Of a stretch of DNA of 32,000 nt, positions 2,676 through 18,832 are shown one piece after another (position 1 is the stretch's first letter; every line of letters starts with the position of its first letter). Source of the DNA: Candidatus Thorarchaeota archaeon. Its GTDB lineage: Archaea; Asgardarchaeota; Thorarchaeia; Thorarchaeales; Thorarchaeaceae. Below the pieces are notes generated by a model. It was not told where the DNA came from. It did no database searches and saw only the letters and a program-made list of their open reading frames with translations. The stretch covers positions 384,704 to 416,703 of the forward strand of contig SHMX01000004.1 in NCBI GenBank assembly GCA_008080745.1. The letters are read 5' to 3'. The position numbers were made by a program, and so were the translations under genes.

Positions 2676-3047
2676 TTGTCCTACTTAGCAGACTTGATAA
2701 GACGTTTTAGTGATTCCAAAAGAACCGAGTTGGAATATCGGACATTGCTTGTTCTAGATATGATCGAATACAGTACAATGTATCCACCTGTGAATGCCAT
2801 AAAGGAGTCCGAACTAAATCTGGTGCAGAAGTGTATCGATGAGGTGGTCGATGATATTGAGGCCTCCAATGACCATATTCTCGCATGTAGGATTTACAAG
2901 ACTTGGAAAAAGCGTGAGCATATACTACAGCTTGCAGAACATGCGAATAGACTTACAGCTGATTTCATGGACCACATTATGTATCATCAAGAAATCCGAT
3001 GGATAAAAGAAACCAAGTCGGATATCTTAGAACTTTCATCAAGATGA
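2676..3047 (+). CDS. Hypothetical alpha-helical protein, 123 aa
   Basis: TTG start preceded by AGGAGA (about 2662-2667); amphipathic-helix pattern; no motif recognised. Confidence 0.65.
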   Translation: MSYLADLIRRFSDSKRTELEYRTLLVLDMIEYSTMYPPVNAIKESELNLVQKCIDEVVDDIEASNDHILACRIYKTWKKREHILQLAEHANRLTADFMDHIMYHQEIRWIKETKSDILELSSR

Positions 3048-15478: not shown

Positions 15479-17293
15479 CTACGGTAGGATATCTGATACT
15501 TTTCCAGCCATTCGAAGTTCTGTCATTGCTGATTCGTAAGCTCTCAGGACATCAGTCTTGGTCAGGAATCCAATCATGATACTCTCATCGTCCGGGTCAA
15601 CTACAACTGCATGTCCTTCATCGCGTTCCATCATATAGCGAAGTACTTTATCAATCGGGGTTTGAGGGTAAACGATTAGAAAATCTGGATTCATGAGCTC
15701 CCATACCATGAGGGTTTCTTCCTTATCATGCCAACATTTCTCCAGAGTTTCTGCGATGACAGTTCCCAGTATCTTTTCATCTAACACAACTGGGAATTTA
15801 GTATGCCGGGTTTCATAGATCATATCAAGAGCATCTGAGGCAAGCATATCCGGTCTTAGCGTTACTGGGTTCTTAGTCATAACCTGCTGAACTGAAACAA
15901 TACGTAATGCATCAAGATAAAGTCCCTGCTTAAGGTTAACACCTTTTCTGCGAAGTTTTTCAGTATAGATACTATCTGGATTTATTGCGGAACTTATAAT
16001 ATACGAACTTGATACAGCGATCATCAGAGGAAGAATCATTCCATAGTCACCAGTCATTTCCATTGTCATGACAATACAAGTGACAGGAACATGTGCAGTT
16101 CCAGAGAACATAGCTGCCATTCCTACTAGTGCGAAAGCCATTGGGAATGGTACGATTTCTGGAAATAGATATTCGAAACAATATCCAAAAGCACCTCCTA
16201 TTCCAGCACCGATGAAGAGAGTAGGTGCGAAGACACCTCCTCCTCCACCTGACCCAACAGTAAGCGAGGTGGTGAGCATTTTAATTAAGCCGAATGTTAT
16301 CATAGCAGCTATGGAAACTGTACCTAATAGAGTAGCGTTTATGAAACCGTAACCACTTCCCATTATAGCTGGGACATATGGATTGACGCTAGTGAATGCA
16401 CCTTGATATCCAAAGATTCCCTCCAATATAATCACCATCGCTGCAATTATTCCTGTAAGTAATCCTCCAAGAGCTGGTTTGCTGTACTCTGAAATTCGTA
16501 GTTTTTCAAACGCTTCTGAAAACCAATAGAATATTTTTACCCAATATTTACTCAAGAAACCAAAGACCAGACCCATCGCAAAAAACAGAACCAATTCGGT
16601 ATAATTTGTAAGGATGAACTCTGGTGCTATAAAGGAAGCAGTTTCTGTTCCAAATACACCAACTGCAATAGCCACACCAATAACAGAAGCCAGGATAACT
16701 GGTACAATGGAGACCGCTGTCAACTCACCTACAAGAATCTCGATTCCAAAGAGACCTCCACCAAGAGGCGCACCAAATGTAGCAGCTACTCCGGAACTCA
16801 ATCCGCATACTAGAAGTGTCCTTGTTGCTTTCCTGTCAAGCTTTAATCTCTGTGCCAAGGCGGAACCAGCTCCAGCCCCAAGCTGAGCAATAGGTCCTTC
16901 TCGTCCACAAGATCCACCGGAGCCTATGCTGACTGCAGAGGTAAGAGATGTGACTATAGTGTCCCTTGTGGATATCTTTCCGCTCTTTATTGAATATGAC
17001 TCCATGACCTCAGGGATGGCTTTAGTTTCGGTTGGAAATCGGACATAAAGGAATCCACTGATTATACCACCAATTGCAGGGATAATAACCCAACCAAGGA
17101 TTCCAATGGTGTTGGGAAGTAGTGAAAATATCTGCGTGATACCAAATATGGTATATCTGAATACAACTGCAATGCACCCAGCAATTGCACCTGTGAGAGC
17201 CCCTAGAACATACAGTCTTGCTTGTTGTTGTTTGAGGAAATAGCGTATTCCGTTACCTCGATTTGACTGTTTTATTAGGCGGCTCAAAAGCAA
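15479..17293 (-). CDS. eriC: CLC-family anion channel/transporter with two C-terminal CBS domains
   Basis: GSGGSCGREGP, GGGVFAP, central Tyr in DSIYTEKL; CBS pair VQQVMTKNPVTL...FPVV and LMNPDFLIVYP...GFLTKTDVL. Start is TTG at 17293 or 17287 (the latter is better spaced from GGTGA). Confidence 0.93.
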   Translation of the reverse strand: MLLSRLIKQSNRGNGIRYFLKQQQARLYVLGALTGAIAGCIAVVFRYTIFGITQIFSLLPNTIGILGWVIIPAIGGIISGFLYVRFPTETKAIPEVMESYSIKSGKISTRDTIVTSLTSAVSIGSGGSCGREGPIAQLGAGAGSALAQRLKLDRKATRTLLVCGLSSGVAATFGAPLGGGLFGIEILVGELTAVSIVPVILASVIGVAIAVGVFGTETASFIAPEFILTNYTELVLFFAMGLVFGFLSKYWVKIFYWFSEAFEKLRISEYSKPALGGLLTGIIAAMVIILEGIFGYQGAFTSVNPYVPAIMGSGYGFINATLLGTVSIAAMITFGLIKMLTTSLTVGSGGGGGVFAPTLFIGAGIGGAFGYCFEYLFPEIVPFPMAFALVGMAAMFSGTAHVPVTCIVMTMEMTGDYGMILPLMIAVSSSYIISSAINPDSIYTEKLRRKGVNLKQGLYLDALRIVSVQQVMTKNPVTLRPDMLASDALDMIYETRHTKFPVVLDEKILGTVIAETLEKCWHDKEETLMVWELMNPDFLIVYPQTPIDKVLRYMMERDEGHAVVVDPDDESIMIGFLTKTDVLRAYESAMTELRMAGKVSDILP

Positions 17294-17391: not shown

Positions 17392-17760
17392 TCACGTAAT
17401 CAGTAATTGGTTTCCAATAACTAATCCCAAAGAGAGCACTATGAATCCGAATAATAGCGAGTAACTTGCATATTCGACACTTTTCATTTTGTCGACATTC
17501 CAGAGGTTATTGATCTCCATTACAAAAGAGGAAAACGTTGTAAAGGATGAGAGAAAGCCTATTACAATGAACCAGTATTGCAGGTCTGAGATAGTAATTA
17601 CTGGTATAAGTATTCCAAGACAAAAAGATCCTAGAATATTGACAGCGATGGTTGCGACTGGTAGTTCTCTAACGACTACATCTTCTGATAGCTTAGAGAC
17701 AAAGACTCTGCTGATTGCTCCAAAAAATGCCCCAACTGCGATGAGGATTGATTCCAGCAT
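17392..17760 (-). CDS. crcB: Fluc/CrcB fluoride channel subunit 2
   Basis: VGAFFGAISR, LPVATIAVNILGSF, GFLSSFTTFSSF; 4 TM; starts 6 nt after the stop of subunit 1. Confidence 0.95.
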   Translation of the reverse strand: MLESILIAVGAFFGAISRVFVSKLSEDVVVRELPVATIAVNILGSFCLGILIPVITISDLQYWFIVIGFLSSFTTFSSFVMEINNLWNVDKMKSVEYASYSLLFGFIVLSLGLVIGNQLLIT

Positions 17761-17766
17761 CTTACT

Positions 17767-18207
17767 TCACTTCGGTATTCTTGAGGATATAGTTGGTTCT
17801 GTCGGTGATTCTGTTTGAAATTTCCTTTTCTTGACGGTTCTTAAGCCTAGTTGAAATCCTATCAATCCAAGAAGTACATGCCCCATAATTAATGTCCCAG
17901 GAATGAACGGATGCGAAACCAGAAGCAGAAGATAGGAATCTGCAATGAATGTTGAAAAGGTAGTGAATGAACCGATGAAGCCAGCTGAGATATCCTTCAT
18001 GTGGACTCGAAGAGTCTCGTTGGTTGGAACCATTTGCAAAACAAGTCCGAGTACAAAGCAACCTAAAACATTGACAATAATCGTATCCACAAAAATCGGA
18101 AGAGCAAGGATATACTCTGTAAGGAATGAAATGCACCATCTTGAGAGTGCACCCATCACTCCCGCTAGTCCAATAACTATCCACATCTTTTGAATTTGTA
18201 ATGACAT
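17767..18207 (-). CDS. crcB: Fluc/CrcB fluoride channel subunit 1
   Basis: GVMGALSR, IIVNVLGCF, GFIGSFTTFSTF; GGTGAG SD at 18221-18216. Confidence 0.95.
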   Translation of the reverse strand: MSLQIQKMWIVIGLAGVMGALSRWCISFLTEYILALPIFVDTIIVNVLGCFVLGLVLQMVPTNETLRVHMKDISAGFIGSFTTFSTFIADSYLLLLVSHPFIPGTLIMGHVLLGLIGFQLGLRTVKKRKFQTESPTEPTISSRIPK

Positions 18208-18250
18208 TTTTTTTGCTCACCGTCATCTGACTATCATTTGTGTCCAAGAA

Positions 18251-18296
18251 GTAGGAATCATCAGCCCGGTGGGCGGTTATGGTGGATCCCATCACC
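18251..18296 (-). ncRNA. Fluoride riboswitch (crcB RNA motif) aptamer
   Basis: Minus strand reads GGUGAUGGGAUCCACCAUAACCGCCCACCGGGCUGAUGAUUCCUAC. It matches the crcB consensus GGxGAUGG..U(C)xCC..AACCGC...GCUGAUGAxxCCUAC. P1 GGUG/CACC, pseudoknot GGGAUC/GAUUCC and P2 GCCC/GGGC all pair. It lies 44 nt upstream of crcB. Confidence 0.93.
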
Positions 18297-18320
18297 AAGC
18301 TGGTTCAATCCATAAGCGAA

Positions 18321-18335
18321 TAAATAAATTGTTGT
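18321..18335 (-). promoter_or_regulatory. BRE/TATA promoter of the riboswitch-crcB transcript
   Basis: ACAACAATTTATTTA on the minus strand; the end of the TATA element is 25 nt from the first G of the aptamer, the expected archaeal spacing. Confidence 0.65.
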
Positions 18336-18412: not shown

Positions 18413-18832
18413 CTAGGATGCCATTATTTCTTTTGCCAGTGTTACTAATTCACATGTTGGTACGTTAATAATTTCGGAAACATATTCTTCAATACTCTCA
18501 AATTCTTCCAGTGACCTTTTTGATTTAAGTTGGATGAAAAATTCCTTACCTTTTTCTGTTAGTTCATAGTCGTATCGATCAATACTATCGGACAGTTGTG
18601 TTCGTGATTCTTCAATAAGGCCGAATGACACAAGAAATCCGATATATTCAGATAACTCATGAGAATATGGACCATAATAATATGGTGTAAATTCAAAATT
18701 AAAATGGATTTTTTTTTCCTTCTTCAGTAAGAAAATAAGCTTCTGAAATCTTGTCCTTCCCTCAATTCTATCATGATTTCCTATTAGATATATGATTCTT
18801 GCAGCATCGCCAATATCCACCACTATCACCAT
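18413..18832 (-). CDS. YwgA-like / Panacea (SocA, DUF4065)-related winged-helix protein
   Basis: IEGRTRFQKLIFL, FTPYYYGPYSHEL and YELTEKG motifs. Its ATG overlaps the HD gene stop (ATGGTGA, 18832-18826). Confidence 0.75.
   Translation of the reverse strand: MVIVVDIGDAARIIYLIGNHDRIEGRTRFQKLIFLLKKEKKIHFNFEFTPYYYGPYSHELSEYIGFLVSFGLIEESRTQLSDSIDRYDYELTEKGKEFFIQLKSKRSLEEFESIEEYVSEIINVPTCELVTLAKEIMAS

Follow-up and report, generated by a model that had tools for sequence, protein, structure and literature searches.

A fluoride riboswitch with a probable translational switch in front of a crcB gene pair in a Thorarchaeota (Asgard) genome

The crcB RNA motif, also called the fluoride riboswitch, is reportedly the subject of work by Weinberg and co-workers in 2010 and by Baker and co-workers in 2012. 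Several traits of the class (RF01734) are shared by the element described here, namely a P1 hairpin with a GAUGG loop, a P2 hairpin, the core GGCUGAUGA and a pseudoknot in which the P1 loop pairs with the 3' tail. Class and element also share the position in front of crcB, and an ON switch is to be expected. Among archaea, the switch of Thermococcus kodakarensis is fluoride-responsive, was validated in vivo and "presumably" regulates translation (Speed et al., 2018, AEM, via PMC8241225). According to PMC8241225 this fluoride switch is the only tested case among archaeal riboswitches, and its mode is presumed. A preliminary description of our locus had cited translational control in Thermococcus as reported. 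This can be kept as a presumption but not as more, since the wording in PMC8241225 is "presumably". The Thermococcus switch and our element are both archaeal fluoride riboswitches which are located before fluoride-export genes and for which a translational mode is presumed. T. kodakarensis is a euryarchaeal hyperthermophile with a switch validated in vivo, whereas the present element is a predicted switch from a marine-sediment Asgard MAG.

The locus lies in a stretch of 32,000 nucleotides of Thorarchaeota DNA (the window), to which all coordinates refer unless a genome is named. The window was scanned against all 4227 Rfam families and the whole 3.16-Mb assembly was also scanned. RF01734 (Fluoride) is the sole Rfam match above gathering score in the window. 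It covers 18305-18245 on the minus strand (53.4 bits, gathering score 34, E-value 2.7e-12, model positions 1-64), and in the whole-genome scan this site, with unchanged score, is the only fluoride riboswitch copy of the assembly. The preliminary description had named an Infernal scan with the Rfam model as a check, and the score is above and not below the threshold. The riboswitch is located between a TATA-like box and the crcB-crcB gene pair, in an intergenic region on the minus strand which is bounded by a 139-aa ORF (ending at 18413) and the ATG of crcB1 (18207-18205). The following features were assigned:

18321-18335, minus strand: putative archaeal promoter, an A-rich BRE-like stretch and the TATA-like box TTTATTTA at 18328-18321 (direct reading)
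18245-18305, minus strand: fluoride riboswitch aptamer (crcB motif), the RF01734 match (Rfam covariance model)
18281-18296, minus strand: P1 hairpin, GGUG 18296-18293 with CACC 18284-18281 (model alignment and alignment of 15 Asgard copies)
18286-18290, minus strand: 5' pseudoknot strand GGGAU, held in the P1 loop AUGGGAUC
18264-18274, minus strand: P2 hairpin, GCC 18274-18272 with GGC 18266-18264, loop CACCG 18271-18267 (model alignment)
18251-18264, minus strand: conserved aptamer core CUGAUGAU at 18264-18257, overlapping the 3' pseudoknot strand AUUCC (18258-18254), then UAC
18227-18234, minus strand: anti-core linker segment AUAGUCAG, partner of the core CUGAUGAU (RNAfold; complementarity kept in relatives)
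18215-18222, minus strand: Shine-Dalgarno (SD) region CGGUGAGC with the SD GGUGAG at 18221-18216 (RNAfold, RNAalifold, 16S 3' end)
17767-18207, minus strand: crcB1, 146 aa, first gene under the switch, ATG at 18207-18205 (Pfam CRCB, PF02537, 5.5e-19)
17392-17760, minus strand: crcB2, 122 aa, starting 6 nt past the end of crcB1 (Pfam CRCB, 5.2e-21)

The junction AACCGCC, the core and the segment CCUAC are all present and aligned to the conserved positions of the model, and the last base of the aptamer is C18251. The A/T-rich box, P1 from 18296, the aptamer end, the SD and the ATG sit on the minus strand where the preliminary description had placed them. The pseudoknot is formed by GGGAU of the P1 loop (18290-18286) and AUUCC of the 3' tail (18258-18254), in contrast to the GGAGU/ACUCC consensus of the class. 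This amounts to one change on both sides and a G-U pair, which keep the pairing and are expected of a working aptamer. For the structure alignment we used 14 Asgard copies above the cut-off and one further copy in genome G079 (L092, 28.7 bits, 25 nt upstream of crcB); the Rfam matches of 22-29 bits L008, L091, L093, L094, L099, L101 and L102 were left out. P1 is paired to 100% across these 15 copies, with compensatory changes in 2 of 4 pairs, and the pseudoknot to 98.7%, with compensatory changes in 3 of 5 pairs. Taken together, 99.3% of the cells are paired and 5/9 pairs are changed on both sides; none of 500 shuffles reached these values, and slid controls pair in 39-65% of the cells. The score of 53.4 bits against a cut-off of 34 and the covariation of P1 and pseudoknot bear out the earlier claim of a fluoride riboswitch. 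The element is almost certainly a genuine member of this class, and binding of fluoride and Mg2+ is predicted for it.

Upstream of the aptamer, an A/T-rich box AATTTATTTA is located at 18330-18321 on the minus strand, and all four related loci have an A/T-rich 8-mer which precedes the first P1 base by 22-25 nt. When the usual archaeal spacing between TATA box and start is applied, transcription is predicted to begin at about 18298-18296, at or within 1-3 nt of P1, which agrees with the preliminary description. The linker between aptamer and crcB1 had been described as 44 nt long and free of a U-tract terminator; the second part holds, but the length is 43 nt (18250-18208). No terminator-like site or hairpin was found in this linker, and its T runs never exceed two.

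The SD GGUGAG starts 14 nt before the ATG, with 8 nt between SD and AUG. The genome's own 16S rRNA ends with ...GGAUCACCUCCU at its 3' end, and GGUGA of the leader matches this anti-SD. GGTG is enriched genome-wide 9-13 nt upstream of ATG codons (peak at -9 to -13), and before the first ATG of long ORFs both GGTG and GGAG show a strong enrichment at a distance of 9-15 nt. The 16S 3' end and the positional enrichment of GGTG indicate that SD-led initiation is used by the organism. With its position at -14 the leader SD is found at the outer edge of the GGTG distribution of the genome, a spacing (-13 or -14) which is kept in the relatives. The 16S rRNA match itself (L133, G000:C2:589938-592348) is 2411 nt long compared with 1478 model positions. 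About 930 nt are inserted, which could represent an intron or expansion segments.

The N-terminus of crcB1 is in register with its counterparts in a genus-mate (G001) and in genome G009, and the crcB1-crcB2 gene pair recurs in G009. Paired crcB genes presumably encode a heterodimeric Fluc channel, and on this basis crcB1 and crcB2 are probably its two halves. A 178-aa ORF (17762-18298), which covers the riboswitch in the ORF track, had been called spurious. We come to the same result, since this ORF has no Pfam match and overlaps the CrcB-scoring 146-aa ORF (5.5e-19) in another frame. Located 98 nt downstream of crcB2 is a gene for a ClC channel with two CBS domains (15479-17293, minus strand), in which GREGP and GVFAP are kept. 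We considered it as part of the regulated unit and rejected this because of the 98-nt gap and because the gene is not found beside the cassette in G009, so that a link to fluoride is without support from synteny.

The Asgard affiliation of the host, as assumed in the preliminary description, is supported by CrcB1, for which a single close relative (82% identity) was found, in the same-genus Promethearchaeota MAG RBin_111. Promethearchaeota are part of the kingdom Promethearchaeati, i.e., the Asgard archaea. Two metagenome runs of one marine-sediment study, which may be where the assembly came from, contain DNA of the window. A survey of Asgard genomes had also been suggested. It revealed riboswitch matches above the cut-off in 7 of 86 genomes of the same family and in 8 of 151 genomes sampled evenly over the phylum, that is in about 5-8% of the Asgard genomes searched. 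A crcB gene (PF02537) was detected in 6 of the 86 same-family genomes, and in each of them a crcB match begins 25-66 nt downstream of a riboswitch match. RNA and gene therefore seem to travel together as a rare accessory unit. A search of the accessible literature found no paper discussing riboswitches in Asgard archaea.

The window element belongs to a subtype which is characterized by P1 GGUGAUGG(G/A)AUCCACC, the core GGCUGAUGAUUCCUAC, a long linker and the SD context GGUGAGCA. This subtype occurs in 4 of 400 Asgard genomes searched, namely the window genome, its genus-mate G001, G009 and G078, which represent three genera. A strict pattern for the subtype gave no match in a metagenome scan. 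With a relaxed pattern 26 contigs were found, almost all of them bacterial-looking (GC 0.53-0.59); one contig with a GC of 0.69 was rejected as a chance match. A low-GC contig (L129) carries a homologous cassette with its OFF-state pairing in a different register, and was for this reason left out of the covariation count given below.

Some of the surveyed loci deviate from the arrangement of riboswitch and crcB. In G080 (L090) the frame behind the riboswitch is stopped after about 35 codons. The G078 locus (L089:167-1565, minus strand) has the same riboswitch subtype, the SD GGUGAGCA and a TTG start. Behind its riboswitch only a crcB-like remnant of 37 codons was found, overlapping the start of a gene for a 405-aa Na+/H+ exchanger (PF00999, 3.4e-39), and the G078 genome has no crcB match. 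Possibly this cassette has been rewired, with coupled translation. In another Asgard family (f19), genome G163 has two riboswitch matches on one contig, separated by about 1.5 kb (L095 and L100; G163:C122:1454-1514 and 2963-3039). G143 and G128 likewise have two matches, the second of which is below the cut-off. The genes behind the paired riboswitches of f19 are not crcB-like in appearance, and one of them is likely to encode a membrane protein.

As to the mode of control, it had been proposed that CGGUG in the linker, overlapping the SD, pairs with CACCG of the P2 region and sequesters the SD in the absence of fluoride. The complementarity of CGGUG (18222-18218) and the P2-loop CACCG (18271-18267) is exact, and both are located where they had been described. 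The unconstrained minimum free energy (MFE) fold of the leader (RNAfold, -25.9 kcal/mol) holds two helices which are both incompatible with the ligand-bound aptamer. The P2:SD helix is formed by GC.CACCG, the P2 5' strand and loop, with CGGUG.GC and covers the SD; the SD region pairs in this ligand-free fold with G18274, C18273 and C18271-G18267. The core:anti-core helix is an addition to the earlier proposal. It joins CUGAU of the invariant core with GUCAG of the linker by 5 contiguous pairs, including one U-G pair, and continues after a G/A mismatch with 2 further Watson-Crick pairs. RNAfold gives the same two-helix fold for G009 and G078. The z-score of the whole-leader fold is unremarkable (-1.17), so that the fold of a single sequence proves nothing by itself. 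The mean unpaired probability of the SD in the window RNA rises from 0.23 in the free fold to 0.73 when the aptamer is enforced. In G001, G009 and G078 the modelled SD accessibility shows no rise with the aptamer enforced because local hairpins take over, which is a real weakness of the model.

With the aptamer enforced, a hairpin is seen in the window RNA, where GAUGACG (18227-18221) pairs with UGUCAUU (18206-18200) on the minus strand. The SD positions 18220-18216 then lie in a 14-nt loop (18220-18207), and G18221 as well as U and G of the AUG are part of the stem. This hairpin can also form in the genus-mate G001.

The four leaders of the subtype, which cover three genera, were also compared with each other. 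The RNAalifold consensus consists of P1 and exactly the P2:SD helix. In this helix 94% of the cells pair, whereas a shift of the partner by 1-3 columns lowers this to 14-44%, and 2 of 9 pairs show compensatory changes. Alignment pair 34-79 (G18267:C18222) is changed from G-C to A-U in G009, one pair is changed from C-G to U-G, and the three relatives have U-A, C-G or A-U at the outer pair 25-88. The window sequence itself has C/A mismatches at both outer covarying pairs. Column shuffles matched the observed P2:SD covariation in 24 of 500 cases, a statistic which is weak since it is based on four sequences, two of them congeneric. The linker segments which face the invariant core (AUAGUCAG, UAGUCAG, AUCAUCAG and AAUCAUUAG across the four genomes) have diverged and yet are complementary to it. 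Compared with shuffles, the anti-core duplex is not better than chance in the window (P 0.11) and reaches P < 0.003 in G009 and G078. The whole OFF-state duplex has -17.3 to -23.1 kcal/mol versus -9 to -11 kcal/mol for shuffled 3' halves, with P values of 0.018 and 0.0175 in the window's genus and 0.001 and 0.0005 in G009 and G078. The covariation of CACCG and CGGUG in the four leaders is suggestive but not proof. The earlier proposal of an anti-SD switch formed by these two segments is supported computationally by the MFE fold, the RNAalifold consensus, the kept pairing and the comparison of the duplex with shuffles.

These values also bear on the possibility that the aptamer binds fluoride and the long-range complementarity is a coincidence, in which case the crcB pair would be constitutive or only weakly regulated. 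The window alone would fit such an explanation, since its values are modest (z -1.17, anti-core P 0.11, whole duplex P 0.018) and G-rich SD motifs easily meet C-rich partners in a GC-rich aptamer. However, the two-helix architecture is present in three genera despite the drift of the linker and is accompanied by compensatory changes. In addition, every crcB found in the family has a riboswitch match at most 66 nt upstream of it, an argument for joint selection of RNA and gene. We regard a coincidence as very improbable.

The anti-SD could also be another part of the aptamer. The preliminary description had mentioned that the P1 3' strand CCACC could pair with the SD; this is possible, but the pairing comprises only 4 bp (CACC/GGUG) in the window and is weaker than CACCG/CGGUG. 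In a translational riboswitch of this type the SD, as a copy of the P1 5' strand GGUGA, would displace this strand when the ligand is absent. The P1 5' strand and the SD indeed have GGUGA in common. In G009 the likeness of the SD region (AAUGGUGA) to this strand extends to 8 identical nt, and an alternative helix of 6 bp would result. Nevertheless, only 4 bp can be formed in three of the four sequences, the pairing was chosen by neither RNAfold nor RNAalifold, and the covarying pairs 25-88 and 26-87 as well as the conserved C after the SD would have no explanation. It seems unlikely that P1 takes the part which we assign to the P2 loop.

A slightly better chance, though still a small one, is given to control at the RNA level, which the linker complementarity would then serve. 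This could be a factor-dependent or pause-linked premature termination, or a ligand-dependent RNase cleavage or change of mRNA stability. In favour of it, the only tested archaeal case is called "presumably" translational in PMC8241225, a run of four U directly follows the aptamer in G009 and G078, and the modelled SD accessibility is flat on aptamer folding in three relatives. The window linker, in contrast, lacks terminator-like hairpins and has T runs of two at most, and it is precisely the SD which the conserved alternative helix covers.

Our favoured reading is a complete and apparently functional riboswitch at the 5' end of the crcB1-crcB2 (Fluc) mRNA which likely acts as a translational ON switch. 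That it is an ON switch for the Fluc channel pair is very probable. The more specific mechanism, in which the SD is occluded through the P2 loop with the help of the core:anti-core helix, appears fairly likely. In the absence of fluoride, the 3' half of the aptamer would unfold and pair long-range with the linker. The core CUGAUGAU would pair with the anti-core AUAGUCAG and thereby nucleate the OFF-state helix. As a result, GC.CACCG of the P2 5' strand and loop would come to lie on CGGUG.GC and bury the SD GGUGAG. When fluoride and Mg are bound, P2, core and pseudoknot would be locked in the aptamer and the long-range helix could not form. The 30S subunit would then have access to the SD, which lies 8 nt before the AUG.

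More tentatively, with chances which we see as a little short of even, a small Asgard clade (three genera in the family searched) may have a lineage-specific platform of this kind, in which pairing of the core with the anti-core is followed by an invasion of P2 by the SD. The riboswitch and crcB would form a rare cassette which is gained or lost as a whole. If true, this would be the first archaeal riboswitch mechanism with support from covariation, and a bacterial-style control by SD occlusion would operate in the prokaryotic lineage closest to eukaryotes. In the short and fully readable leader of the locus, a TATA-like box is followed by an aptamer, which begins where the transcript is predicted to start, and by the anti-core, the SD and the AUG. 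Because the two structures are mutually exclusive and natural compensatory changes exist, the mechanism is directly testable. The locus also documents the fluoride riboswitch class in Asgard archaea, which are under-documented hosts. General knowledge of fluoride riboswitches is unchanged by it, and it adds a clear though rather ordinary example to a known class.

Bacillus-type switches (L012, L019, L028) resemble the window locus in that the same kind of gene pair is present and the aptamer is located upstream of the gene. Outside the Asgard archaea, CrcB1 has its closest relatives in the CrcB proteins of these loci (30-39% identity). In these switches the 3' strand of the pseudoknot forms a terminator hairpin followed by 7-11 T, whereas the window linker has no terminator and the SD is the part which would be occluded. 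The aptamer sequences differ as well (GGCGAUGGAGUUCGCC against GGUGAUGGGAUCCACC) and give no pointer to a recent transfer from a Bacillus-type source. Such a transfer from Bacillales was considered since the next-best CrcB matches are Bacillus-like. It is not supported in view of the low CrcB identity of only 30-39%, the different aptamers and the terminators carried by the Bacillales copies.

Bacterial metagenome copies with the core GGCUGAUGAUUCCUAC (L107-L132, GC 0.53-0.59) seem to use an analogous translational platform in which P2 is invaded. Their P2 segment CUUCACGGC is exactly complementary to GCCGUGAAG, which is located at a GUG start codon in most of these contigs. The invasion of P2 by the translation-initiation region is thus not unique to Asgard archaea. 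Short-linker copies from the same phylum as the window (G038 and G049 of family f3; G023, G035 and G079 of family f1) share with it the riboswitch class, the crcB target and the logic of SD sequestration. They differ in that the SD follows the aptamer after only 4-15 nt and a single crcB of another subfamily is located downstream. The MFE fold of the two f3 copies pairs the SD with the 3' strand of the pseudoknot, e.g., ACUCC with GGAG. In G163 a core:anti-core pairing is found beside the start codon. Compared with the crcB motif class, the window element is distinguished by its Asgard host and by a putative anti-SD which lies in P2 and not in the 3' strand of the pseudoknot.
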